Assembly (NCBI GenBank): GCA_020725385.1
Contig: DYFC01000059.1
Location: 1 to 12,075, forward strand
Length of the DNA: 12,075 nt
Direction of reading: 5' to 3'
From: Nitrospira japonica
GTDB lineage: Bacteria > Nitrospirota > Thermodesulfovibrionia > Thermodesulfovibrionales > SM23-35
This document shows, piece after piece, positions 325 to 11,933 of the stretch. The position numbers and the translations under genes were made by a program. The notes below the pieces were generated by a model. It saw only the letters and a program-made list of their open reading frames with translations. It was not told where the DNA came from and made no database searches. Position 1 is the stretch's first letter. The number at the start of each line of letters is the position of its first letter.

Positions 325-1230
325 TTAGTTTTCCCTGTAAGAACTATACACTAATTTTATATTCTTTACTATCTCTCCAATCTTGTGAAAGTTTCCTGAG
401 TTGAGCATTATAATATTATACTCCAAACCCCTCTTAAAATATTTATCTTTTTTATGGCAGTTCTTATTGGTATTAAGAATAAGGGTTACATAATCTTTTC
501 CCAACATTCTAATAAAGTGTCCATAATCATAAATATCTCTATCATTTATTTTTCTTAACTCTTTTACCAAAAAAAGATGATTCCTAAAAGTAAAAATATA
601 GCTAAAAAGTAAAGATTGTTTTCTGTCTTCATTAGTCAAAAGCCCGTTTAATATTATATTCTCTGACTCTCCAATGATCTCTGATAATAAATAAGCAGTC
701 TTCTTTATACTTAAAACCAATCCTCTATTTGATTTTAGATTATCTGAGAAGCTGCTACCTTTAAGTTTATATCCAAAAGAATTTACAAAATCCCCTACAT
801 CCACATTTTTATCAAAAATATATTCTTTAAATAAAGGATAAATCTCAATAACATTCCCCGAATCTGCATTGATATAAATTATGCAGCCATTACTCTTTTC
901 ACTTACAAACCCTTCATATGCGGCAAGCGACATTATCTTTGTCCCGCCGGTAAGATTTAGGATTATCTCATTTTTCTTATACTGTTTAATAATTTGCCTT
1001 ATCTTTCCGATTGTCTCCTCATAACCAATATAACTTACTAATTCTTCTCTAATATCTACGCCATATTTTTTTATTATATCCAGAAATCTCTTACCTTTAT
1101 CGGATTTTTCAGCAGTATTAAAAAGCACTACTATATCAGGCTTAAATTCAGGAAAATAAAAAGGTATAAGATCGGGTATAATATTATCTGATGCAAAACA
1201 GATATAGACTCTTTTACTATTAGTAATCAT
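325..1230 (-). CDS. Card1/Can2 (DUF1887)-like CARF protein with degenerate, probably inactive C-terminal PD-(D/E)xK domain
   Basis: N-terminal CARF motifs RVYICFASDNIIPDLIP, PDIVVLFNT, LNLTGGTKIMSLAAY and VGDFVNSFGY parallel the adjacent gene. The C-terminal LFSYIFTFRNHLFLVKELR aligns with ELDVVFTYNNKLFVIECKS but lacks the D and ExK. Confidence 0.8.
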   Translation of the reverse strand: MITNSKRVYICFASDNIIPDLIPFYFPEFKPDIVVLFNTAEKSDKGKRFLDIIKKYGVDIREELVSYIGYEETIGKIRQIIKQYKKNEIILNLTGGTKIMSLAAYEGFVSEKSNGCIIYINADSGNVIEIYPLFKEYIFDKNVDVGDFVNSFGYKLKGSSFSDNLKSNRGLVLSIKKTAYLLSEIIGESENIILNGLLTNEDRKQSLLFSYIFTFRNHLFLVKELRKINDRDIYDYGHFIRMLGKDYVTLILNTNKNCHKKDKYFKRGLEYNIIMLNSGNFHKIGEIVKNIKLVYSSYREN

Positions 1231-1233
1231 AAC

Positions 1234-2208
1234 TTACTCTGAAATCCATTGTAAAATTATTTCATCAAGTCTTTTTAAGTCATCAAAATATATAATCTTA
1301 ACGTCTAATCCGTAGAGAGATGAATAATCGATTTCACTTTTATTTCTTGCACTTATCAACATAAGTCTAACAAAGTCACCTCCTATTTGCTTGCCAAGCA
1401 CATTAAGTTTTTTTGAACCAGATATCATACCACAACCTGATTTACATTCAATAACAAATAACTTATTGTTGTATGTAAATACGACATCGAGTTCATTCTC
1501 AAGTAAATTAGGACTTATGATGTTAATATTACATTTTAACCTTGCCTCATCCTTAATATATTTGCTTACACAATAGTAAGCATAATACTCAAGCCAAAAT
1601 CCTCCACCCTCATAGACAATATTATTATTCTCAAAAAATGTAATTATTTTACTATTAATTTCACTATTGTTATTAAATAGATAATTTCTATTATCATAAA
1701 TTAGTTTACCGAGTAGTTTTACATAGTTAGTGGAGGCATTACTTTTTGCAATATACCCATAACTATACAAATAATCTTCAACGTTTATTGAATCTTCGAA
1801 ATCATACATTTCTATCTTTGGCTTTATCTGCAAAATCATCTTTTCTGCAGTATTTACATATAAAATCCTATATTTTATCCTCTGACTCTTTAAAAATGCT
1901 GTATATGCGGCAAGTGCCATTATCTTTGTCCCGCCTGATATATTCAAAACAAGTTCATAACCATTGTAATAATAAATAATTTTCTCAATCACATTCTTTA
2001 TACAATCAAATGCTATTGAGTTTTCCAAGGACTTTATTAACACATCCATATTATGTCTTTCGAAAATCTCCTTTAGCCGTTGAGCCTGGTTTTTCTTTTC
2101 AGGGGTCTGCAATAATATAACTTTATCAGGATAAAACTTCTTCATAAAGGCAGGTATCATATTAGGAACCGGTTGGTCAGAGACAAGGCAGATATAAATC
2201 CGTTTCAT
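1234..2208 (-). CDS. card1: Card1/Can2 family cOA-activated nuclease (CARF + PD-(D/E)xK, DUF1887)
   Basis: CARF: ICLVSDQPVPNMIP and LNISGGTKIMALAAY. Nuclease: GGFWLEYY ... NELDVVFTYNNKLFVIECKSG, then KL..LGKQIGG, typical of Card1/Can2. Confidence 0.88.
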   Translation of the reverse strand: MKRIYICLVSDQPVPNMIPAFMKKFYPDKVILLQTPEKKNQAQRLKEIFERHNMDVLIKSLENSIAFDCIKNVIEKIIYYYNGYELVLNISGGTKIMALAAYTAFLKSQRIKYRILYVNTAEKMILQIKPKIEMYDFEDSINVEDYLYSYGYIAKSNASTNYVKLLGKLIYDNRNYLFNNNSEINSKIITFFENNNIVYEGGGFWLEYYAYYCVSKYIKDEARLKCNINIISPNLLENELDVVFTYNNKLFVIECKSGCGMISGSKKLNVLGKQIGGDFVRLMLISARNKSEIDYSSLYGLDVKIIYFDDLKRLDEIILQWISE

Positions 2209-2214
2209 AAGATA

Positions 2215-3984
2215 TTATTTTTTTAAACCGAGTTTTTTGAGTTTGATACTTAGCGTTGATTCGGGTATCTTTATCTTTTCTGCGAGAACCTTCTGCTTTT
2301 TATACTTGCTAGTCAGCTTTGAGAGTATCTTTTTTTCATATTCCTCCAGATATTTATCATATCCCAGATTCTCTATGACCTTTATTTCTGCATCTTCGTC
2401 CTTATTTGCTGTATAATCTTCTACGATATCTTCCCTCTTTCTAATCTTATTTTCTTCTAAAACGCTCAATAAGATATCCTTTTTTATAACCCCATCTTTA
2501 CTCCTGATTGCTGAATTAAGAATAACATTTTCAAGAACTCTAACATTCTTATTTTTCCAATTACACATATTTAATATTTTTAAAGCCTCATCATCTGTTC
2601 TATATTCTGTTCCTCTCTCAATACTCTTCTTTTTTAATATAAGTCTTACAATCAACTCTATATCCTCAATCCTGCTATTCAGATTATCTATATTCACTCT
2701 ATACCTTGATATCCTATTGAAAAAGTCTTCGGGGAGCTTCTCTTCCTGTATCAGCTTTTCAGGGTCCTCATTTAGGGCAAATATCATATAAATTTTACCT
2801 TCAATATTCTCTGGGTAGTCATCTCCAACTCTCCTTACTTGTTTAAATTGAACAAACCTGTTTAATTGCGAAGAGACCTCATAAGGCATCTTTTCAACTT
2901 CATCAAAGAAGAGAATAGACCCTTGATCCACTGCGGTCTTTATCATTCCGACTCTGTCAGTATCGGCACCAGTAAACGAACCTTTTTTATGTCCGAATAA
3001 CTCAGAGGCTATCAAGTCTTTGGAACTTCCCCCAATATTTATAACCATCATCCCTTTACCCAGCAGATTTGCATAATATCTTGCAAAGAGTTCCTTACCT
3101 GTCCCGGTCTCTCCATACAACAAGACTATTTCACAATCGTTCCTTGCAAAAGCCTCAAGGTCTGCTGTTGTTTTTTGAAAGGATCTACTTACTCCTGCCA
3201 GAAACGCCGTTTTACTCGTAGCATCAAACGACAACTTCTCTATCTCATCTGTATCCTTTATCAGAATTACCTTATCATCGGGTTTATAAATCTGATAGGT
3301 CTGCTTACTCGTATCGACCTCTTCCTGAAATTTACTAACAATATTTTTATATGTAGTCCCAAGATTAATCCTGTCACCAAACTTGTTTTTCAAACGGACA
3401 TAAGAGATTTCAACGAGGTCTATCTTAATATTATCATGAGGTACTTCTCTGCCATCTTTTAACAATAACCTGCCACCAGGCTCAGGGAAGAAAAAATTTC
3501 TCTCTGTTTCTATGTAAGGCGGAACCATAACATGATACAGCTTATCTTCCTTCCCGCCAAGCAGCGTCATTATCAGTGCCATATATGCAGTCATAGTTTT
3601 TCTTCCGCCCGCAATTGATGTAAAAAGTCTTTTCTCTACATTTATCCGCTGTATCTCTTTTACGGCATTGAATATAAAATTTGCTGTATCTTCACTGTCT
3701 TTTGAATCCCTTATGTCCAGAATTTCTTCTTTATTACTGCTGTTAATAACATAGACATTTTCGGCATAAGTAAATCTGACATTTGTTTTATAGAGTTCGT
3801 TGAACCTTCGGATCTTTTCGTCAAAGTTTACACTCTTAAGAACTTTCAGACCTTCTGATGTAGTAATTATATATATTTCGTCAACCGGTTCTTTATTGCA
3901 TACAGCAAGGCCATATAATGTCTCTGTTACAACCTGCGGAGTCGTCCCGACAACACTTACAAGTATTCCATTTTTCTTCTGCAT
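2215..3984 (-). CDS. CARF (NE0113/Csx14-type) - sigma54-interacting AAA+ - Fis-type HTH transcriptional activator
   Basis: CARF: VGTTPQVVTETLYGL, IITTSEG, DIR, SIAGGRKTM, DKLYHVMV, FFFP. AAA+: Walker A GETGTGKE, SELFGHKKGSFTGA (GAFTGA-like loop, 2965-2982), Walker B ILFFDEV, EDFFNRI, RIEDI, sensor II WKNKNVRVLEN. C-terminal HTH QKVLAEKIKIPESTLSIKLKKLGL. Confidence 0.92.
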   Translation of the reverse strand: MQKKNGILVSVVGTTPQVVTETLYGLAVCNKEPVDEIYIITTSEGLKVLKSVNFDEKIRRFNELYKTNVRFTYAENVYVINSSNKEEILDIRDSKDSEDTANFIFNAVKEIQRINVEKRLFTSIAGGRKTMTAYMALIMTLLGGKEDKLYHVMVPPYIETERNFFFPEPGGRLLLKDGREVPHDNIKIDLVEISYVRLKNKFGDRINLGTTYKNIVSKFQEEVDTSKQTYQIYKPDDKVILIKDTDEIEKLSFDATSKTAFLAGVSRSFQKTTADLEAFARNDCEIVLLYGETGTGKELFARYYANLLGKGMMVINIGGSSKDLIASELFGHKKGSFTGADTDRVGMIKTAVDQGSILFFDEVEKMPYEVSSQLNRFVQFKQVRRVGDDYPENIEGKIYMIFALNEDPEKLIQEEKLPEDFFNRISRYRVNIDNLNSRIEDIELIVRLILKKKSIERGTEYRTDDEALKILNMCNWKNKNVRVLENVILNSAIRSKDGVIKKDILLSVLEENKIRKREDIVEDYTANKDEDAEIKVIENLGYDKYLEEYEKKILSKLTSKYKKQKVLAEKIKIPESTLSIKLKKLGLKK

Positions 3985-3988
3985 CTGC

Positions 3989-4312
3989 TTACTCCGTTCT
4001 CAAAAGGATACCAAATTCATAATTATCTAATATGTATTCTTTCGAGAGTTCCCCTTTCATATTAGGGTCTGTTACCCTCTTCGTAATCCTGAAAATGAGA
4101 GCCTCATCCCCCTTATTCAGTCTTACCTGAATCCTGTTGACATCAATTTTTATCCCTGTCAGTAATTCCATCGCATCAGCTGTCTCCTGATAACCTATTG
4201 CAGACTTAAAATTTCCCTCCAATAGCCATTCCCTGGCTTTATCAAGTGATATTTTGTTGTATTTATAAACACCCTCTTCGGTTATAACAGCCGAATTAAG
4301 TATATATCTCAT
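3989..4312 (-). CDS. crn2: AcrIII-1/Crn2 family (DUF1874, STIV B116/YddF-like) ring nuclease homologue; catalytic His position is Tyr
   Basis: 107 aa. Motifs YILNS, G.Y....IS, SAIG(Y)QETA..M..L.GI.I.VNR, L..GD.ALIFR...R match the DUF1874 pattern. RBS AGGAG (complement of 4319-4323). Confidence 0.82.
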   Translation of the reverse strand: MRYILNSAVITEEGVYKYNKISLDKAREWLLEGNFKSAIGYQETADAMELLTGIKIDVNRIQVRLNKGDEALIFRITKRVTDPNMKGELSKEYILDNYEFGILLRTE

Positions 4313-4335
4313 ATCAATCTCCTTTTAATATTAAT

Positions 4336-4364
4336 ATCCTACAACAAACCCCTTAGAAATTCAA
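4336..4364 (-). promoter_or_regulatory. Candidate sigma70 promoter for the crn2 / CARF-activator / card1 operon
   Basis: Minus strand TTGAAT (4364-4359), 17 nt spacer, TAGGAT (4341-4336), just upstream of the RBS and ATG at 4312. Confidence 0.5.
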
Positions 4365-4378
4365 ATAATTAAAGAATT

Positions 4379-4431
4379 CAAAAAATCAAATATGGCAAAC
4401 AAAAAATCAGATAAAAAACTGTTCTTTATCT
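4379..4431. promoter_or_regulatory. Candidate regulator-binding sites (direct repeat plus palindrome) upstream of the sigma54 promoter
   Basis: CAAAAAATCAAATA (4379-4392) / CAAAAAATCAGATA (4400-4413), 21-bp period. Imperfect palindrome AGATAAAAAAC-T-GTTCTTTATCT (4409-4431), 10/11 arm match. Confidence 0.4.
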
Positions 4432-4443
4432 CTCTTAAACATA

Positions 4444-4460
4444 CTGGCACAGGAGTTGAC
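4444..4460 (+). promoter_or_regulatory. Candidate sigma54 (RpoN) -24/-12 promoter
   Basis: CTGGCACAGGAGTTGAC = TGGCAC-N5-TTGA. GG (4446-4447) and GA (4458-4459) have the exact GG-N10-GC spacing, with C>A at -12. Predicted TSS near 4471, RBS AGGAGG at 4477-4482. It is divergent from a sigma54 activator gene. Confidence 0.65.
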
Positions 4461-4489
4461 ATATCCGGAAAACATCAGGAGGTATTAAT

Positions 4490-4651
4490 ATGAAAGAACC
4501 AAAATCAGCAAAACTTTGTAGTATCTGTCACGACAAGAAGGCATTATTTGTATCAAATGGCAACATCAAGTATGAAAAAAGCCACAATCTGTGTTACAGA
4601 TGCTTCAGAAGCTTGAGAGACAGTCTCTATAGTAAATTACTAAATGAATAG
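4490..4651 (+). CDS. Small 53-aa putative zinc-finger protein (CxxC...HxxCxxC), not in the ORF track
   Basis: MKEPKSAKLCSICHDKKALFVSNGNIKYEKSHNLCYRCFRSLRDSLYSKLLNE*. Perfect AGGAGG 7 nt before the ATG. The TAG stop overlaps the AGGAGG RBS of cas1. Confidence 0.8.
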   Translation: MKEPKSAKLCSICHDKKALFVSNGNIKYEKSHNLCYRCFRSLRDSLYSKLLNE

Positions 4652-4661
4652 GAGGTAGCTT

Positions 4662-5660
4662 ATGCAAAAGAGGATAAATCTATTTGTTACAGAGCAAGAG
4701 AGCATCTTAGGCGTTGAAGGAAACAGAATATACATTAGAAAGGAAAAGAATAATCTACTAGATATACCTATCCTCAACATAAGACAAATAGTATTGTTTG
4801 GCAATATTACAGTTACACCAAGAGCAATCACAAGACTGCTCAACGATGGAGTATTTATTACTTACCTTACAACAAATGGAAAATTTCTTGGGCAAATACT
4901 ACCGGCAGAGCATTCGGATTGCAATATTATTAAGCTTCAGGTCAAACGGGCAGATGACAATGCATTCAGATTTAGAATTAGCCGGGACATCATCGATGCA
5001 AAAATAAACAATTCAATATCTCATCTTTTACAGAGAAGAAGAATAAAATCAGAAGCAGATGAACTTATAGCTGAACTCAAGAAAAACCAATCCAGACTAA
5101 GTCAATGTACAAAATTTGATGAATTAATGGGAATTGAAGGTATTTGTGCAAAAATATACTTTAGCGGGTTAAAAAGACTCCTGATAAAGGATTTTGGATT
5201 TAAAGGGAGGACAAAGCACCCTCCTGAAGATCCCGTAAATGCAGCTCTCTCCCTGTCATATACCTTACTCTATTCCATTATCTTTTCTATGCTACATATA
5301 CACGGACTGAATCCATATATAGGTTTTTTGCACGAGACAAAATACGGACACGCAGCCCTTGCATCAGACTTACTTGAAGAATTCAGAGCCTATGTCTGTG
5401 ATAAATTTGTATTAAAGTGTTTTAACCAAAACATGTTTGATGCTAACTCATTTACAAGAACTGAGAAAGGGGTATTTTTCAAAGATGATAAATTAAAATT
5501 ATTTCTCAAGAATTGGGCAGAGAACCTTGATAACGAAATAAATTATAACAATTCATTCAAAACAAACGTTTACAGGCTAATTGATATTCAGTCAGAAAAC
5601 ATAAAAAAATCAATCTTAAGTGGAGAAGATTATAAACCATTTATCTTCGAGGATGTTTAA
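4662..5660 (+). CDS. cas1: CRISPR-associated endonuclease Cas1
   Basis: LMGIEGICAKIYF, FKGRTKHPPEDPVNAALSLSYTLL, GLNPYIGFLH, ALASDLLEEFR (catalytic E/H/E intact). RBS AGGAGG at 4650-4655. Confidence 0.97.
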   Translation: MQKRINLFVTEQESILGVEGNRIYIRKEKNNLLDIPILNIRQIVLFGNITVTPRAITRLLNDGVFITYLTTNGKFLGQILPAEHSDCNIIKLQVKRADDNAFRFRISRDIIDAKINNSISHLLQRRRIKSEADELIAELKKNQSRLSQCTKFDELMGIEGICAKIYFSGLKRLLIKDFGFKGRTKHPPEDPVNAALSLSYTLLYSIIFSMLHIHGLNPYIGFLHETKYGHAALASDLLEEFRAYVCDKFVLKCFNQNMFDANSFTRTEKGVFFKDDKLKLFLKNWAENLDNEINYNNSFKTNVYRLIDIQSENIKKSILSGEDYKPFIFEDV

Positions 5661-5661
5661 G

Positions 5662-5985
5662 ATGAGGACAAGAAGAATGTATATAGTAGTAGTTTATGAC
5701 GTATGTGAATCAGAAGGTAACCCCAAAGAGAAGAGAAAGAATCGCAGGAAGTTGTATAAAAGGCTTAAGGATATAGGCTCCCCCGTCCAGTTCAGTGCCT
5801 TTGAATTTAATGTGACTCCCGAACAAAAGGCCCAGATTGAAAGTATAATAAACCGCTATATTGAACCAAGTGACAGAGTCTCTGTATATACTCTATGTGA
5901 AGAATGCAGAAAGAAGATTGAGAGATTTCAGACAAAGACATTAAAACCTGTTATAACAGATGATATTTCATCTATGGAGGTATAA
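5662..5985 (+). CDS. cas2: CRISPR-associated protein Cas2 (alternative start 5677)
   Basis: YIVVVYDV, G.PVQFSAFE, DRVSVYTLCEEC. Directly follows cas1. GAGGA lies 8 nt before both ATG 5662 and ATG 5677; the track start at 5620 is a GTG inside cas1. Confidence 0.93.
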   Translation: MRTRRMYIVVVYDVCESEGNPKEKRKNRRKLYKRLKDIGSPVQFSAFEFNVTPEQKAQIESIINRYIEPSDRVSVYTLCEECRKKIERFQTKTLKPVITDDISSMEV

Positions 5986-5986
5986 A

Positions 5987-6445
5987 ATGATGAATACAGA
6001 CATTTATCTCCTTTCTTCATCATCACCGGTAGCAAAAAACATGAAAATCTCATTTTCGGTTCAATTAGGCAAGGAAGAAATTATAAAGACAATAAATATC
6101 AGTAAAGAAGGTTCACCGATTGAAGCCGAATACATAGGGTTAATTTATATATTTGAGAAAATATTTGCCGAGAAGAAGATTAAAAAATTGACAGATGTAA
6201 ATATATTTACTAATAATCTCACTGTAGCAATGCAGATAAACGGTAAATTCAGAGTCAGCAGCAACAGGGTTATTGCTCTGTATAGCAGATTCAAAGCCTC
6301 CTCTTCACATTACAGACTAAATGCCCAATACCTTGAAAAGAATAAAATTCGGGAGAATATACGCAATGAAGACAGTGTATATTCGGAAAAAGAGCTCACA
6401 AAAATTCTCAATGAAATCGATTCGGAAGAGAGTATATGGAAGTAA
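5987..6445 (+). CDS. RNase HI-fold (RVT_3-like) protein, apparently catalytically degenerate
   Basis: EAEYIGLI and VNIFTNNLTVAMQINGKFRV resemble the RNase HI motifs AEY.AL and DS.LV..Q..G.y.v. GGAGG at 5976-5980 supports a start at 5987 or 5990. Confidence 0.7.
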   Translation: MMNTDIYLLSSSSPVAKNMKISFSVQLGKEEIIKTINISKEGSPIEAEYIGLIYIFEKIFAEKKIKKLTDVNIFTNNLTVAMQINGKFRVSSNRVIALYSRFKASSSHYRLNAQYLEKNKIRENIRNEDSVYSEKELTKILNEIDSEESIWK

Positions 6446-7269
6446 AACATACTGTTATTGGAAGATTTTATGTTTCACTGAGATTTGAGAAGAAAGGAGT
6501 TATACACGGAAGGGGCGGAGAGCAGATTCACGGAATTATATTCAGAGAACTCAAAAAGATATCAAAGGAAATATCAACTCATTACCACGATTCGGAAAAA
6601 CCTTCTGCCTTCGCAATATCATACCTTCTGCCAGACGCTCCCGGTCAAAAACCATATCTGGAAAACGGAAATCTCATAATCAACAAAGGCGACACACTCC
6701 GATTCATCGCAGGATGTGTGGACGAAGGGCTCCTCTCTGTATTAATCAAAGTTTTTCTTGAGATAATTAGGGATAGCAGAATTGTAAGGATCGGGAATAT
6801 CCCTGCCACAATTATACAGACAAATCTGACAGGGAAAGGCAAAACAGAATTTACAACCTATGAGGAGATTATAAAGAAACCAGCCAGAAAAACCAGAATA
6901 CTACTAAGGACTATTACACCTGTGAGTTTCAGGCATAATGGTATGCAAATAAGTTTCCCTCAGCCATTTAACGTTTTTTATTCACTTCTAAAAATCTGGA
7001 ACAATTATTCAAAAATAAAATTCGACGAAAGTTTACTGGAAGATGCTCAGAAGATTATGGTATCAAAGTACAATCTCCGATCTGAGATAATAAATTTTGA
7101 TAATTACGAAATTTTTGGCTCCAGGGGATTTATAGTTTACGACCTCTCAAAGCTGAAAGGGACCGAGAGCCACAGAATCTTCAATATTCTTGCAGACTTT
7201 GCAAATTACTCCGGAATCGGCTACAAAAGGTCAATGGGGATGGGGATGGTAGAGATAAAATTCATCTGA
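6436..7269 (+). CDS. cas6: CRISPR pre-crRNA processing endoribonuclease Cas6
   Basis: C-terminal Gly-rich loop FANYSGIGYKRSMGMG, plus TPVSFR, FPQP..VF.SL..IWN and the N-terminal HG/..HD.. pattern. Confidence 0.95.
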   Translation: MEVKHTVIGRFYVSLRFEKKGVIHGRGGEQIHGIIFRELKKISKEISTHYHDSEKPSAFAISYLLPDAPGQKPYLENGNLIINKGDTLRFIAGCVDEGLLSVLIKVFLEIIRDSRIVRIGNIPATIIQTNLTGKGKTEFTTYEEIIKKPARKTRILLRTITPVSFRHNGMQISFPQPFNVFYSLLKIWNNYSKIKFDESLLEDAQKIMVSKYNLRSEIINFDNYEIFGSRGFIVYDLSKLKGTESHRIFNILADFANYSGIGYKRSMGMGMVEIKFI

Positions 7270-7271
7270 TT

Positions 7272-8693
7272 TTATTTATCGACTAAATCAACAAGCTGAC
7301 GGGTTTTCTCTATATACTCACCTGCATTGTCAATATAATCTTTAAGTGGCTCCTTCCAGTTCAGTTTTTCAGAGGTTCCCAGAAAACAGTGGTCAATACT
7401 GTTTCGTTTCTTACCTATCTGGTCTTCAAGCGTTTTAAACATCTCTGCCAATTCCGGTCTTTCATTAAACCAGCTATTTAAATGACTTAAAATCTTTTCT
7501 TTGGCTCTATCCCCGCAGTTAGGAAATACATCCCCCGGGTCAGGATACATATCATTATTACACACGCTTCTTACAGTATATAGACATTCGTCCCAGAAAT
7601 TTTTCTTATTTACATCAAAATCAATATCACTTACTCCAATCTTTTTAGTTATTATATAGGCAGCACATATAGCAAGTGTCTCCCTCAAAACCGAGAATGT
7701 CTCGATTATTCTTCTTCTTTTTAAATACCACTCTGCAAGACTTATCATATTGAACAACGTGTCTTTAGAAATGAAGTTGATATTAATTTCTCTTCCTTCC
7801 CCGATCATTTTAGTATTTTTCTCCCCAGAAATACCCTTAACAGACAGAATATCACTCCGGATATATTCTATAATCTCATTTACAGGGGACATCATAGGAA
7901 AATCGGACAGTATCTTTTCTGCCTCTTCTCTAAATCCGTCCATTTTACATCCAGCAGCAACTGACTGATAAAAAATATCCTCAACCTTTAATATATCATT
8001 TGCCGCATTTAAGAGATTTAATGAGATAATAATCTCCTCAAAAGGAAGTTTCCCCCTTTTTTGGCTTTTAAGATATCTGGTCAGGTTAACCATCTTTTTT
8101 GTAAATATATCTCCTCTTCCTGTCTCCCTCCACTCCATCAGTGACTCTGACCATTCAGCAAGCCCAATCATTGGAGTCAGGTCAAAGATTAGTGATACCT
8201 CTTCATCATTTATCTTTTCTTTTGCATCAAAAGCACCGTAATATACAGACTCAATATTGAAACCATAAATGTTTTTATAAAAAAGCAGTGCAAGTATCAG
8301 TGTAACAGGAAGCGCCCTGAAACCGTGAGTAATATCTATTATCAGTCTTACATCCTCCTCCCCTTGTGTTTCAGTTTTGAGCTTTGTCCCTATTTGGTTA
8401 AAAATCTCCCACATCTGATTTTCTGACTGACCACTAGGTATGTCAACAGCTTCAATCTGCCCTCCGTAAATACCTCTCAACTCAACTTCTAACTTATTAT
8501 CCCAATGTTTACTTTTTGCCCCCTCGGTAAGAAAAACGACAATTTTATCAATATTATACCCCTTTTGTTTTAATAACTGACATAGAGCCACCTGAAAATA
8601 TTTATTTCTGTCACTTACCAGAGAATCATCAAGTTTATATCTTGCTTCCTTATAATCACCAGTTCCCAGAAATGAAATTAAAATATTCCTCAT
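7272..8693 (-). CDS. csx1: Csx1/Csm6-type CARF-HEPN ribonuclease (TM1812 / DxTHG family)
   Basis: ILISFLGTGDY, VFLTEGA, IPSGQSENQMWEIF, IDITHGFRALP, VYYGAFDA, IFDLTP; HEPN RNSIDH (R-X4-H). Start refined to 8693, with a GGGAGG RBS 5 nt upstream. Confidence 0.92.
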   Translation of the reverse strand: MRNILISFLGTGDYKEARYKLDDSLVSDRNKYFQVALCQLLKQKGYNIDKIVVFLTEGAKSKHWDNKLEVELRGIYGGQIEAVDIPSGQSENQMWEIFNQIGTKLKTETQGEEDVRLIIDITHGFRALPVTLILALLFYKNIYGFNIESVYYGAFDAKEKINDEEVSLIFDLTPMIGLAEWSESLMEWRETGRGDIFTKKMVNLTRYLKSQKRGKLPFEEIIISLNLLNAANDILKVEDIFYQSVAAGCKMDGFREEAEKILSDFPMMSPVNEIIEYIRSDILSVKGISGEKNTKMIGEGREININFISKDTLFNMISLAEWYLKRRRIIETFSVLRETLAICAAYIITKKIGVSDIDFDVNKKNFWDECLYTVRSVCNNDMYPDPGDVFPNCGDRAKEKILSHLNSWFNERPELAEMFKTLEDQIGKKRNSIDHCFLGTSEKLNWKEPLKDYIDNAGEYIEKTRQLVDLVDK

Positions 8694-8703
8694 AAATGCC
8701 TCC

Positions 8704-11700
8704 CTATACTTTTGGTAAAACTGCCGGTATATACTCGGCATCACTTTTAAGTTTTATAAGAGTATCTCTGTGAGAATCAGCCAACGGATTTGAGATAATA
8801 TCCGAGACAAATGTGGATATATCACCTGCATACTTTCTTAAAAGATATTTCTCATCTTTGCTTTCAGATTTATCAAAATTTATCGTTTTTATTTTTTTGC
8901 CCAATTCCTTTGCCTCATTAAAATCCGTTTTTGTCAGCTTGCTTATATATATCCACTCCGCAACACATAACAGATAAAGAATACAAACAATATGGATTTT
9001 ACTAATGTTATTCTTTATATAAGTCAGAAGATTTTTATAAAACACAGCCGAATAATCAGAAGAACGGCCATTTAAAAAGTCCACAATGATCTTCATATGC
9101 ATAGAAAGTATCTCGGGATAATATTTCTCAAGATTTTTATCATTTCCCTTATTTGTAAACATTATCGGCTTTGCATCATCAATCCCACTCCATAAGTTTA
9201 TCAGATTCGCAATCTTATCACCACTATTCCTTTTGTATCTCTTGTACGACATATAAAGGAGATAATAATATCTTGTCTTTTCGAAGAGCAGAAATCTTCT
9301 GTTTGAATTTGATTCTGTAATATCTTTATAATAATTAGCAAGATAACCCTCAATTTCATTAATATATCGTTCTATCAGCTGACGATTTTCACTCTCTTTA
9401 GTATTTATCAAAGCCCTAATCAGAGTTATACCTGACTGCATTCTTTCTGACAATCTCAGGTTGTTATATGCCTTTTTGAGCAGTAAAACCGCCTCTTCTG
9501 CCCTTCCGCTTACAGCAAGTATATGTCCCTTTGCAGAACAAGAAATATACAATGAACTATTCTCTTTGTACCTGATTTTTTCTATTAAGTCATCAATAAT
9601 TTGTAGTGCCTCACTGTAATTGAGACTATCAGCAAGCATATGGGCATATACCAGTTTCGCCTCAACGAGATATTCCTCAATATTCTCAGAGCTCAATATT
9701 TTTGGGTCGATTTCCTTTGTATAATCCTCTATCTTTTGAAGATATTCTAAAGCTTTAACAGAATTTGCCCTGTGAGTATATTGTCTTGCTATCTCCTTAT
9801 AAATCCAAACTTTCAAATCGTGCCTTAAATTATCAACATTTTTTACACTATCAAGTTTTGATTCAAGTTCAAGGAGTTTATCCAAATCATATCCCAAATT
9901 CTGCATCTCTGTTAATGAATCTTCTATAGACCTGATTAAATCTAAAGGTTCATCCCTGCTTTCAGCAAAGGTAAAGATATATTTAAAAAGTGAGTTGTAT
10001 TTTAGTAGTCTCAGAAATTTATAATTAATCTTAAGTACATTATCTTCCAAACTTAAAAGCGGGATATTTTTAATCTCCTTTATTTCGAGACAAAGAATAT
10101 CTCTGATTAAGTTCAGTCCGTCCATAACTCTTTCCCTGACAGATGCTCTGAGATTTATTTCAACAAAGTCGTCATCACTCTCTGCAAAGCCTTTAAGTAT
10201 ATTTCTGAACTCACTCTCGGTTATGTCCAGCTCTATCTTCTCACTCTTCTTGTTTTTGAAACTCTTTTTTATAATCTTCTCAAGGTCGATTATTGAATAT
10301 TTCTTTAGAGACGGATAAGCAATATCAAAAAAACGGGTTGAGGTAAAAACAGCCCTTAGTCCTTCAAGTATTTCGATATTATCCACTGAAACAACATTGA
10401 AATTTGTAAGGATGTTTTTAATCTTTTTGTCTTTAATATCAATAGTTTTTAAATGCTCACACAGATAATATAAACTTTCAAAAAATTTAATACCGTCGTT
10501 ATCTTTAGAATAATAAAATACTACGGGCTTCAATATTCTTTTCAATATACATCTACTATTCTTTCCTGAGTATAAATATTTCTCCCAGTCATCAGAATTG
10601 ATATCTCTCATAGCTCTAATGATAGAGCCTTTCATACCATCAATTATCTGATTCACATTATTTGCTATAAAGAAGGAATAATATCTGTAATTAGACCTAA
10701 AAACTGCTACCCAAAAAAGAAAATAGATGACCAACAAAACAATTATCAATGGCTGCTTTATAACGCTAATAAAAGATTTCCACAAAATGCCAGATACGCT
10801 GGACATTCTCTCTATATGTAAGTCCTTCTTCTTTAATTCACTCATAAACTCAAACGAGGGCCAGACCGGTTTTGCCTGAGCAGGGAGTTCTGTCAGTTTA
10901 TCGATACCCTTTCTGATATCTACATCCTTTGCCGAAAATTTCTTCTCAACCTCACCCGCAATAAAAACTAGACTACCTACTGATTCATCAATAGAATCTA
11001 TGAGCTCTTTTGAAGCCTTATTGATATTATCCACCGTTGCAGAAGCTTCTTTAAGAGATATACTAATCTTTATATTATCCAGATTCTCTTTTTTCTTTTT
11101 AACAATTGAGAGGACCGTCTCTGTTTTGGACTTGAATACAGACCACTCTTTATCTATATCTCCCCGTTCAAAGATACCCTTGTACTGTTTACAGTAATAC
11201 CCCTCTCCCCCAGCATAAGGACTGCACTCAAAAGACATAAGTTTTTTCAGATAATTTTCATAATCTCCCTTATATCGCACAGCCTCCTTTAAAAGCTCGT
11301 CCGAGAATTTTACAAAATTTAGATAATATTCATTTGTTTTTCTGGCAGTTGTGTTTGAACTCTCCTCAATATGAGACATAAAGGCGTGAGACATCCCAAG
11401 TACAACCAAAGAGACCATAATATACAAAAAAACAAGAAAATACTCCAACCACTTGAATGCCAAAAAAAGATTCCATAATGCTAAAAGGTCATTAAATACT
11501 TTTACAATAATTAAGACTGCTAAAATTAAAATCCCGCCAAATCCAATATTAGAAATAACGTTTGTTCCACCGTAAAAGTCTCTTATATCTAACAACGCAT
11601 GCAAGTCAAAATAGGCAATAGTAATGCATAAAGTTATAAACAATACAGTTGATACCCAATACTCTATAGCTGATTTAAATGTTGATAATAAATGTACACT

Positions 11701-11706
11701 TTTCAT
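8704..11706 (-). CDS. Large uncharacterised membrane protein: N-terminal TM helices, coiled-coil region, further TM helix, C-terminal helical/TPR-like region
   Basis: 1000-aa uninterrupted ORF. Hydrophobic segments at about aa 17-37, 53-72, 76-108 and 320-337. Heptad-rich region at about 115-305 with ECSPYAGGEGYYC. TPR-like AHMLADSLNYSEALQII and KGHILAVSGRAEEAVLLLKKAY. Stop overlaps the csx1 RBS. No clear RBS at its own start. Confidence 0.7.
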   Translation of the reverse strand: MKSVHLLSTFKSAIEYWVSTVLFITLCITIAYFDLHALLDIRDFYGGTNVISNIGFGGILILAVLIIVKVFNDLLALWNLFLAFKWLEYFLVFLYIMVSLVVLGMSHAFMSHIEESSNTTARKTNEYYLNFVKFSDELLKEAVRYKGDYENYLKKLMSFECSPYAGGEGYYCKQYKGIFERGDIDKEWSVFKSKTETVLSIVKKKKENLDNIKISISLKEASATVDNINKASKELIDSIDESVGSLVFIAGEVEKKFSAKDVDIRKGIDKLTELPAQAKPVWPSFEFMSELKKKDLHIERMSSVSGILWKSFISVIKQPLIIVLLVIYFLFWVAVFRSNYRYYSFFIANNVNQIIDGMKGSIIRAMRDINSDDWEKYLYSGKNSRCILKRILKPVVFYYSKDNDGIKFFESLYYLCEHLKTIDIKDKKIKNILTNFNVVSVDNIEILEGLRAVFTSTRFFDIAYPSLKKYSIIDLEKIIKKSFKNKKSEKIELDITESEFRNILKGFAESDDDFVEINLRASVRERVMDGLNLIRDILCLEIKEIKNIPLLSLEDNVLKINYKFLRLLKYNSLFKYIFTFAESRDEPLDLIRSIEDSLTEMQNLGYDLDKLLELESKLDSVKNVDNLRHDLKVWIYKEIARQYTHRANSVKALEYLQKIEDYTKEIDPKILSSENIEEYLVEAKLVYAHMLADSLNYSEALQIIDDLIEKIRYKENSSLYISCSAKGHILAVSGRAEEAVLLLKKAYNNLRLSERMQSGITLIRALINTKESENRQLIERYINEIEGYLANYYKDITESNSNRRFLLFEKTRYYYLLYMSYKRYKRNSGDKIANLINLWSGIDDAKPIMFTNKGNDKNLEKYYPEILSMHMKIIVDFLNGRSSDYSAVFYKNLLTYIKNNISKIHIVCILYLLCVAEWIYISKLTKTDFNEAKELGKKIKTINFDKSESKDEKYLLRKYAGDISTFVSDIISNPLADSHRDTLIKLKSDAEYIPAVLPKV

Positions 11707-11852: not shown

Positions 11853-11933
11853 AGTCCACAGTCGACAGTCCACAGACCACAGAAAGGACAGTGCTGAAGG
11901 CAAAAGTAGTGCTAAAGCACTGAAGGGCTGAAG
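11853..11933 (+). repeat. Heptamer tandem repeat (GTCCACA-type x4) plus GCTGAAG-type units; right copy of the flanking direct repeat
   Basis: AGTCCACAGTCGACAGTCCACAGACCACAG (11853-11882) is identical to 138-167. AGTGCTGAAGGC (11890-11901) is identical to 173-184. GTGCTAAAG, CACTGAAG and GGCTGAAG units follow. Confidence 0.9.

Follow-up and report, generated by a model that had tools for sequence, protein, structure and literature searches.

Gene content of the locus

We analysed a stretch of 12,075 nt from Nitrospira japonica, hereafter the window, which is the entire contig C59 (DYFC01000059.1) of an assembly of 2.46 Mb (GCA_020725385.1; 71 contigs, 96.6% complete). The window forms a self-contained island of ~11.7 kb with CRISPR accessory and adaptation genes; all of its open reading frames (ORFs) are intact and closely packed (Table 1). 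On the minus strand, a tight operon of four genes encodes a DUF1874 protein, a predicted sigma54 activator that carries a CARF domain of the NE0113 type at its amino terminus, and two CARF proteins of the Card1/Can2 type. On the plus strand, across a gap of 177 bp, lie a zinc-ribbon ORF, cas1, cas2, an RNase H-like ORF and cas6. The activator, in which a CARF domain is fused to a bacterial enhancer-binding protein (bEBP), is the main subject of this analysis, together with its DUF1874 partner and a sigma54 promoter-like site in the gap through which it may control the cas1 operon.

An original prediction, made from the sequence of the window, held that the activator senses cyclic oligoadenylate (cOA) and switches on the divergent operon. 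The gene order that it gave for this operon was confirmed gene by gene (4490-7269, plus strand), with the RNase H-like match falling below the cut-off. The size that it gave for the gap was also correct; the gene that borders the gap, however, is not that of the activator but that of the DUF1874 protein, which had gone unmentioned.

Table 1. Features of the window, their positions and strands, and the evidence for each
Feature	Position	Strand	Evidence or remarks
Second Card1-type CARF protein, 301 aa; activator operon, 3-nt gap	325..1230	-	PF23400 E 3.3e-11
Card1/Can2-like CARF + nuclease effector; activator operon, 6-nt gap	1234..2208	-	PF23400 CARF_Card1 E 1.8e-19; PF09002 Card1_endonuc E 2.3e-15
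Predicted activator, 589 aa: NE0113-type CARF, sigma54 AAA+ (GSFTGA), lid, putative C-terminal helix-turn-helix	2215..3984	-	Pfam and NCBIfam above cut-off
DUF1874/STIV B116-like protein (Crn2/AcrIII-1 family), 107 aa; first gene of operon	3989..4312	-	PF08960 E 4.8e-21
Divergent control region, 177 bp	4313..4489		Between DUF1874 gene and zinc-ribbon ORF
Direct repeats AATTCAAAWAAT (4358, 4375) and CAAAAAATCARATA (4379, 4400; 21-nt spacing)	4358..4413		Repeat search
Palindrome AGATAAAAAAC-T-GTTCTTTATCT	4409..4431		11-nt arms, 91% complementary
-24/-12-like site TGGCAC-AGGAG-TTGAC	4445..4460	+	GG 4446-4447; 30 nt before zinc-ribbon ORF
Four-Cys zinc-ribbon ORF (CxxC...CxxC), 53 aa; heads plus-strand operon	4490..4651	+	Translation; CXXCH matches sub-threshold
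cas1	4662..5660	+	PF01867 E 3.5e-88; TIGR00287 289 bits
cas2	5620..5985	+	PF09827 E 7e-18
RNase H-like ORF, 161 aa	5960..6445	+	NF041175 E 1.9e-6, below cut-off; feature-based matches
cas6 (PF10040 type)	6436..7269	+	E 1e-16
Csx1-like CARF (TM1812/DxTHG) with RNSIDH HEPN-type motif	7272..8744	-	TIGR02221 81.8 bits; TIGR02549; motif from translation
1000-aa membrane/repeat ORF with N-terminal hydrophobic segments	8704..11706	-	Overlaps start of Csx1-like gene by 41 nt

A CARF domain fused to a sigma54 activation module

Both halves of the activator are recognised well above the family cut-offs. Residues 15-207 match Cas_NE0113 (PF09623; E 1.3e-32, 113.8 bits against a cut-off of 23), as does the corresponding NCBIfam model (TIGR02584 cas_NE0113; 135 bits against 80.65), and residues 263-430 match Sigma54_activat (PF00158; E 2.4e-36, 125.4 bits against 20.2), with AAA_lid_14 at residues 437-516. 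The Walker A (GETGTGKE) and Walker B (FFDEVE) motifs and the loop GSFTGA, which is one conservative change from GAFTGA, can be read from the sequence as first described. The AAA+ and carboxy-terminal part aligns to the NCBIfam models of NorR, RtcR, NifA and NtrC, and the alignments to NorR and NtrC run to the last residues of these models. No helix-turn-helix (HTH) family of Pfam matches the activator at E <= 0.01; HTH_8 matches 12 of the 25 members of the fusion family described below, and the activator of the window is not among them. These features support a complete bEBP architecture, and the protein is predicted to be a sigma54 activator. The same genome encodes rpoN (Sigma54_DBD, E 2.7e-60, in a 484-aa frame on contig C2) and 11 bEBPs.

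The sensor domain is not RtcR-like, because the RtcR model (NF038308; E 2e-43, 148.9 bits against a cut-off of 650) covers residues 254-564 only; the claim that RtcR belongs to a different CARF subfamily is thus borne out. The domain had been described as NE0113/Csx14-type and as fused to a sigma54 module. The NE0113 assignment and the fusion both stand, whereas the Csx14 label was dropped, the only match of TIGR03642 in the window being a weak one to the Csx1-like ORF. Models of Csa3 give no match to the activator and weak matches to other ORFs of the window.

No solved structure for the NE0113 domain of the activator is detectable by sequence. Residues 1-235 were modelled with AlphaFold2 from 76 sequences at a mean predicted local distance difference test score (pLDDT) of 94.9, and a Foldseek search of the PDB with this model gave 67 matches at E <= 0.001. 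The 29 matches listed, which extend to rank 50, are without exception CARF domains from proteins that bind cOA. They include Cad1-CARF (E 8e-8), which binds cyclic tetra-adenylate (cA4) or cyclic hexa-adenylate (cA6), as well as Card1, Cam1, Csm6 and Can2, and also the Crn1-type ring nucleases Sso2081 and Sis0455. As modelled, the amino-terminal domain is a Rossmann-like CARF fold, closest to CARF domains that bind cA4 or cA6.

The DUF1874 partner

The DUF1874 gene heads the minus-strand operon, 4 nt upstream of the activator gene and on the same strand. Its product matches PF08960 (75.2 bits against a cut-off of 26) and the structure 2j6b (E 3e-12). In the HMMER alignments, Tyr41 stands opposite the His of 2j6b, 2j85 and 2x4i (AFV3-109, STIV B116 and ORF114), and Tyr occupies the position of the catalytic His in all 45 homologues (P0280-P0324), within the motif (S/T)(I/L)GY(Q/E)ETA. 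One of these homologues is labelled 'YddF family protein' at NCBI. In SIRV1 gp29, His47 is described as absolutely conserved and catalytic, and the H47A change as lowering activity more than 2500-fold (bioRxiv 10.1101/778746). The exchange of the catalytic His for Tyr therefore sets the partner apart as a distinct subfamily, probably slowed or non-catalytic, and the protein of the window is predicted to act as a slow or non-catalytic binder of cA4. More generally, members of the Tyr subfamily may be ring nucleases of naturally 'detuned' activity, or else cA4 binders. Among effector-containing loci, ring nucleases are reported to occur only with cA4-dependent effectors (bioRxiv 10.1101/2024.09.24.614671).

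The pairing of the two genes is conserved. A DUF1874 homologue lies directly upstream of the fusion, on the same strand, in all three related metagenome loci (L099, L100 and L101, described below), and the DUF1874 proteins of these loci are 64-65% identical to that of the window, compared with only 38% for the adjoining fusions. The closest DUF1874 homologues come from contigs of 11807, 7227 and 30554 nt, the same sizes as the contigs that carry the fusions P0002, P0003 and P0124, and we infer that these homologues are co-located with the fusions. Among 100 relatives of the host, a single genome has a DUF1874 homologue; it is 34% identical and does not lie on the contig that carries the NE0113 gene of that genome. 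The DUF1874 protein is not a general companion of NE0113 domains. A complex prediction for the activator and the DUF1874 protein gave a score of 0.00, which is evidence neither way.

A sigma54 promoter-like site in the divergent control region

The TGGCAC-N5-TTGA site that had been proposed ahead of the cas1 operon is present: TGGCACAGGAGTTGA, at 4445-4459 on the plus strand, is the one place in the window that matches TGGCAC-N5-TTGM exactly. If up to one mismatch is allowed, there are three matches, against 0.53 expected, and 4 of 200 shuffles also reach three. The site is also the only intergenic one in the window, on either strand, that has the GG and at most three mismatches to TGGCAC-N5-TTGC. 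If the GG is taken as positions -25/-24, transcription would start at ~4471, and a ribosome-binding site (AGGAGG, 4478-4483) and the ATG at 4490 follow 7 and 19 nt on. No sigma54-like site with an intact GG and at most two mismatches precedes the minus-strand operon or the csx1-like and 1000-aa genes.

The rest of the 2.46-Mb genome provides a background for this match. TGGCAC-N5-TTG occurs at 14 sites, three of them intergenic, each followed after 29-41 nt by an ORF in the matching orientation; two have the canonical TTGCT, and the third is the site of the window. The pattern TGGCA[CT]-N5-TTGC is intergenic in 14 of its 20 occurrences, 12-225 nt before an ORF. A relaxed -24/-12 pattern matches 310 times genome-wide (4.9 million positions), 47 times in intergenic DNA, and the chance of such a match in a given stretch of 177 nt, on one strand, is therefore ~0.01. 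Intergenic matches to the relaxed pattern lie within 2.5 kb of six of the 10 other bEBP genes. Two of these sites are non-canonical, TGGCAT-N5-TTGT at C30:25181(-) and TGGCAG-N5-TTGCT at C17:4934(+); both are immediately beside bEBP genes, and they suggest that the TGGCAY-N5-TTGC core need not be strictly kept in this organism.

On the plus strand of the gap there is no sigma70-like match of at least 9/12. A perfect TTGACA at 4457-4462 overlaps the -12 element, and no usable -10 element is seen by eye at 16-18 nt after it. We predict, at odds of about two in three, that 4445-4460 is a working sigma54 promoter; the features of the site that count against this are taken up below.

Two further elements lie upstream of the site. 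The palindrome is centred ~26 nt upstream of the GG, and its tighter patterns matched nowhere else in the genome; it is a candidate binding site for a regulator. The direct repeats are likewise candidate upstream activator sites, or may be A-tracts.

A small family of fusions and its related loci

In a word-indexed search, residues 1-260 of the activator matched 287 of 5.8 billion proteins. The sigma54 domain is also present in four of the 120 matches listed (the query included), and the others are stand-alone NE0113 proteins of ~370 aa. A profile search of 1.84 billion representatives returned mostly ordinary bEBPs; 22 candidates were taken from its best 150 matches and were joined by P0001, P0002 and P0003. 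Both domains, the NE0113 CARF and the sigma54 domain, are found in 24 of these 25 chosen candidates. NE0113-bEBP fusions thus constitute a genuine family, rare and small, with 24 or more clusters at 50% identity, and most of the 25 members keep GAFTGA, GAYTGA or GSFTGA in the loop.

Stand-alone NE0113 proteins (TIGR02584) are common in the lineage of the host, with 31 positive genomes among 100 relatives and 68 among a sample of 400 genomes of the phylum. The fusion, on the other hand, is absent from the 316 other genomes of the order: with a query spanning the junction, no other match covers the linker strongly. This query matched every genome through its AAA+ part and is usable as a negative only. 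In a plasmid collection searched by tblastn, 2354 records match, and in none of them does the match extend over at least 80% of the fusion. Several apparent fusions were rejected. In a scan of contigs with the full-length alignment of the fusion, 78 of 80 loci match the AAA+ part only and are generic bEBPs; of the two with an amino-terminal match, L048 is a stand-alone NE0113 protein of 364 aa and L046 is a gene cut at the end of its contig. Long frames in the genomes G317 and G215 were ruled out as well, the ORFs being 374 and 466 aa.

A metagenome scan provided three related loci, L099, L100 and L101, whose fusion belongs to a cluster 38% identical to the activator of the window. L099 (12.6 kb) contains, in order, a CRISPR array, small ORFs, the DUF1874 gene, the fusion, a second array, cas6 and housekeeping genes; L100 and L101 are short. 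The Cas6 of the window is 37% identical to that of L099 (E 2e-51) and unrelated to the other Cas6 of its own genome, on contig C29. As judged from these sequences, the conserved association is that of the DUF1874-activator pair with this type of Cas6 and array, and the divergent cas1 beside the fusion is so far unique to the window. Tandem 44-nt repeats with the palindrome GGGGCGATTGATTAATCGCCC also occur in L099, at 3747-3993 and 6266-6373; one set separates the fusion gene from the array, and 2.3 kb lie between the two sets.

Other genes of the island, its origin and CRISPR arrays

Of the two Card1-type genes that follow the activator, the first is a full Card1/Can2-like gene; in the second, which directly follows it, no nuclease domain is recognised, PF23400 being the only Pfam match. 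Together with the Csx1-like CARF-HEPN ORF and the DUF1874 protein, these two ORFs make up the cA4-pathway parts of the locus. The RNase H-like ORF has feature-based matches in the Atlas to RNase H type-1 and RVT_3 clusters, with scores of 0.91-0.94. It is flanked by cas2 and cas6, in an adaptation module lacking its own reverse transcriptase. The 1000-aa ORF has no Pfam match and no usable match in the feature-based Atlas search, and it may encode an unrecognised membrane-associated ancillary protein. The window contains no tRNA and no Rfam family. Of the sequencing runs, no RNA run is listed as a match and one DNA run matches a small share (0.06), which bears on neither expression nor habitat.

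The island looks foreign to the order of its host, judging from sequence comparison. The search for similar Cas1 proteins in the 316 other genomes of the order (E <= 1e-60) gave one match, at 36% identity, and the Cas1 encoded on contig C29 of the same genome is 35% identical. In addition, an exact direct repeat of 30 nt with GTCCACA-like heptamers, at 138-167 and 11853-11882, brackets every gene of the island. Each copy is followed by AGTGCTGAAGGC (138-190 and 11853-11901), and these sequences are found nowhere else in the assembly. The repeats are possible boundaries of an island that is mobile or has recombined; the window contig encodes no integrase.

There is no CRISPR array on the window contig. 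An orphan array of eight repeats (GATGCAGTAGCGAGCCCTATGACGAGGGAACTGAAAC) lies at C9:35905-36450 (L110), surrounded by housekeeping genes and away from any cas genes. Its repeat has a 3' end (GGGAACTGAAAC) that resembles, by eye, the reverse complement of the L099 repeat (GGGAACTGCAAC). From this likeness, and that of the Cas6 proteins, the C9 array is likely a client of the cas6 and cas1-cas2 genes of the island.

A proposed signal-induced adaptation circuit

How spacer acquisition is controlled, so as to be off in healthy cells and on during infection, is an open question, especially for type III systems. The domain architecture of the activator, its CARF fold, the presence of rpoN, the unique and well-placed -24/-12-like site and the conserved gene pair can be assembled into the following circuit. 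A cyclic oligoadenylate, probably cA4, would bind the dimeric CARF domain of the activator, and binding would release or assemble its AAA+ ring. The activator, bound in the 177-bp gap, would then remodel the sigma54-RNA polymerase at the TGGCAC-N5-TTGA site. This would switch on the divergent operon, and spacer acquisition and the processing of CRISPR RNA (crRNA) would take place only while the infection signal lasts. The co-transcribed DUF1874 protein would set the threshold or the duration of the signal.

This full chain is plausible, and it runs parallel to what has been proposed for Csa3a (see below). We assign it a probability of about 0.45, slightly below even odds, and its weakest links are the source of the signal and the target. 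If it is true, a cOA-gated sigma54 activator links interference signalling directly to adaptation in bacteria, with tight off/on control. Sigma54 promoters are strictly activator-dependent, and such dependence suits a toxic function such as acquisition. Priming is not known in type III systems; that positive feedback of this kind could stand in for it there, as the original prediction suggested, is speculation.

A more far-reaching version of the same idea, which we consider unlikely, would make the Tyr-type DUF1874 protein and the NE0113-CARF activator a conserved two-protein sensor and timer of cA4, carried on a mobile, effector-less island that is foreign to the order of its host and bounded by the 30-nt direct repeat, and that taps the signal of a type III system in trans and induces its own cas1-cas2-RNaseH-cas6 genes. 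Such an island would be a transferable module for acquiring spacers only when infected, the bacterial sigma54 counterpart of Csa3a, and the detuned ring nuclease would set the duration of adaptation.

Points against the circuit and alternative explanations

Several observations weigh against the proposed circuit, and they concern the source of the signal, the promoter-like site and the related loci. With regard to the signal, the Cas10 search of the assembly gave one sub-threshold match to the Csm1 model and none to the Cmr2 model. The protein matched is Csx11 (1038 aa; 337 bits against a cut-off of 249), the sole Cas10-like protein in the assembly, which we equate with type III-C. It is encoded in a type III locus (L003, C29:41000-58500) with Cmr1/4/6-like RAMPs, its own cas1, a second cas6 and an array of eight repeats; this locus also has a separate reverse transcriptase of the group-II-intron type next to cas1. 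An HD motif and a CxxC pair are present in Csx11, and TTPD is read at the palm-2 position; its 1038 residues contain none of the GGDD-type variants listed in PMC11229360. The Csx11 subfamily is described as an inactivated Cas10 (Makarova et al. 2011, PMC3150331), and type III-C loci as having neither cyclase sites nor known effectors (PMC11229360). Elsewhere in the assembly there are no RAMP genes, and no SMODS cyclase or CD-NTase was found in it. The genome as assembled thus encodes four CARF proteins and a DUF1874 protein and no predicted cOA synthase; with Csx11, which lacks the cyclase motif, as the only Cas10, the source of cOA is missing in the assembly. The original prediction had named the lack of rpoN or of cas10 in the genome as grounds for rejection: rpoN is present, and for cas10 there is only this Csx11, so that half of the objection applies. 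With an assembly 96.6% complete, in which the 12-kb window makes up an entire contig, a second locus could have escaped assembly.

These findings bear on an alternative in which the CARF domain of the activator does not sense cOA made by Cas10 but instead RNA ends, linear A2>P/A4>P cleavage products or a partner such as the DUF1874 protein, with a general stress or damage response of the island as output. Besides the missing cyclase-competent Cas10 and CD-NTase, such an explanation could draw on the DUF1874 partner, which has no catalytic His, and on RtcR, whose CARF domain answers to RtcAB binding and tRNA fragments (PMC9650030, PMC7790460). The NE0113 domain, however, is not RtcR-like, and its nearest solved folds are CARF domains that bind cOA; moreover, three further CARF proteins on the island are of cA4-effector types, and the assembly is incomplete. 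We regard this alternative as quite unlikely. A different doubt attaches to the promoter-like site. Its -12 element is TTGA, which is non-canonical, and TGGCA[CT]-N5-TTGA shows weak intergenic enrichment only (4 of 17 sites, against 14 of 20 for TTGC). A 24-nt position weight matrix built from 14 sites of the same genome gives the site 7.5 bits, compared with 18.4-28.4 bits for the training sites. As many as 272 sites genome-wide score 8 bits or more, mostly inside ORFs, which puts the site of the window at background level. The palindrome is centred ~50 nt upstream of the inferred start, and enhancer sites normally lie farther upstream than this. The match may accordingly be due to chance, or the island may be an orphan foreign remnant that is not wired into its host, with the cas1 operon transcribed from an unrecognised sigma70-type promoter. 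The TTGACA that overlaps the -12 element would fit such a promoter, and the absence of an array on the contig would fit a remnant, as would the signs of foreign origin (Cas1 identities of at most 36% and no fusion in the 316 genomes, a DUF1874 homologue in one of 100 relatives, and the flanking repeats). On the other side, the matrix is biased against the site because its training sites, which all have TTGC because they were selected for it, were chosen for TTGC and for AT-rich spacers; the TTGACA has no usable -10 after it, the ORFs are intact and tightly packed, and the relaxed -24/-12 match in the gap has the low chance probability given above. On balance, chance or a remnant appears improbable, to much the same degree as a sensor that ignores cOA.

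The related loci raise the question of what the activator controls. The fusion and the DUF1874 gene are kept together in the three loci; no cas1 is visible in L099, L100 or L101, and none of the three has a -24/-12 site within one mismatch in a promoter-like place. The best site, TGGAACGGGGATTGT, has two mismatches and lies ~640 nt upstream of the DUF1874 gene of L099; it recurs in L100, which is near-identical. With 0.09 HIP1 octamers expected in its 12.6 kb, L099 has three, and its source may be a cyanobacterium, a group not known to possess sigma54. Within the fusion family at large, the GAFTGA loop is degenerate in four to six of the 25 members. The activator could be a cOA-responsive bEBP for crRNA biogenesis (cas6 and the arrays) or for signal feedback, and cas1-cas2 would merely ride along in this island. 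The conserved neighbours in L099, namely the DUF1874 gene, two CRISPR arrays and the related cas6, speak for such a role, as do the cas6 at the end of the plus-strand operon of the window and the likeness between the C9 and L099 repeats, which fits a shared Cas6 and repeat type. Yet this argument draws on three related loci from two clusters, and L099 begins inside a CRISPR array, so that the genes beyond are unseen and cas1 may lie there; no sigma54-like site is found near the arrays or cas6 in the three loci, while the promoter-like site of the window precedes cas1. We judge a role confined to crRNA biogenesis or feedback to be unlikely, and retain cOA-induced expression of the whole cas1 operon as the preferred reading.

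Comparison with known systems

In the literature searched, to which the 2020 CARF classification (PMC7498327) and supplementary files do not belong, there is no description of a CARF-bEBP in a CRISPR locus, nor of the Tyr-type DUF1874 subfamily, and the literature on NE0113, TIGR02584 and PF09623 gives no account of a sigma54 fusion. Papers there that link CARF to sigma54 are confined to RtcR. The 2020 classification may already list the fusion architecture. That no characterised example of the arrangement exists, as the original prediction stated, is therefore true of the bEBP form in this literature; the same logic, however, has been proposed for Csa3a (PMC8699464).

Csa3a of Sulfolobales binds cA4 and, when overexpressed in S. 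islandicus, leads to more cas1/cas2 transcript and more spacer uptake (PMC8699464). It is a CARF regulator that adjoins acquisition genes (cas4-cas1-cas2) in reverse orientation, and the circuit drawn for it is the same as that proposed here (PMC8699464). Csa3a is nevertheless archaeal, has a winged HTH output and belongs to another CARF family, whereas the activator of the window is bacterial and has an AAA+ and lid output. The operon of the window, unlike the Csa3a cassette, also carries cas6 and an RNase H-like gene.

The predicted architecture of the activator is that of RtcR, the activator of the rtcBA RNA-repair operon, in which a CARF domain, a sigma54 AAA+ domain and an HTH follow one another; under the control of its CARF domain, RtcR drives a neighbouring sigma54 promoter, a logic like that proposed here (PMC4012209, PMC9650030). 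The activator differs in its amino-terminal NE0113 (PF09623) CARF domain, residues 1-253 lying outside the RtcR model. The CARF domain of RtcR is reported to be regulated by RtcAB binding and tRNA fragments and not by cOA (PMC9650030, PMC7790460). There is also no rtcA or rtcB in the window, where the neighbours are instead cas genes, CARF effectors and the DUF1874 protein.

With the aid of a promiscuous bEBP, a sigma54-dependent cas1 promoter has been described in Salmonella Typhimurium LT2 (STM2938) by microarray, chromatin immunoprecipitation on microarrays (ChIP-chip) and reporter assays (PMC3844500). It resembles the site of the window as a -24/-12 promoter that expresses cas1. It differs in being intragenic, in belonging to a type I-E operon and in having no CARF protein, and that study identifies neither the native activator nor the signal (PMC3844500).

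The DUF1874 partner is of the same family (PF08960) as Crn2/AcrIII-1 and aligns to AFV3-109 and STIV B116, but differs from them in having Tyr for the catalytic His. Stand-alone NE0113 proteins (~380 aa) share the amino-terminal CARF domain of the activator at 33-42% identity and have a different carboxy-terminal region of ~170 aa in place of its AAA+ and putative HTH domains. Thus, the logic of the circuit is known from Csa3a, the architecture of the activator from RtcR and a sigma54-dependent cas1 promoter from Salmonella, and what would be new here is the CARF-bEBP form of the circuit.

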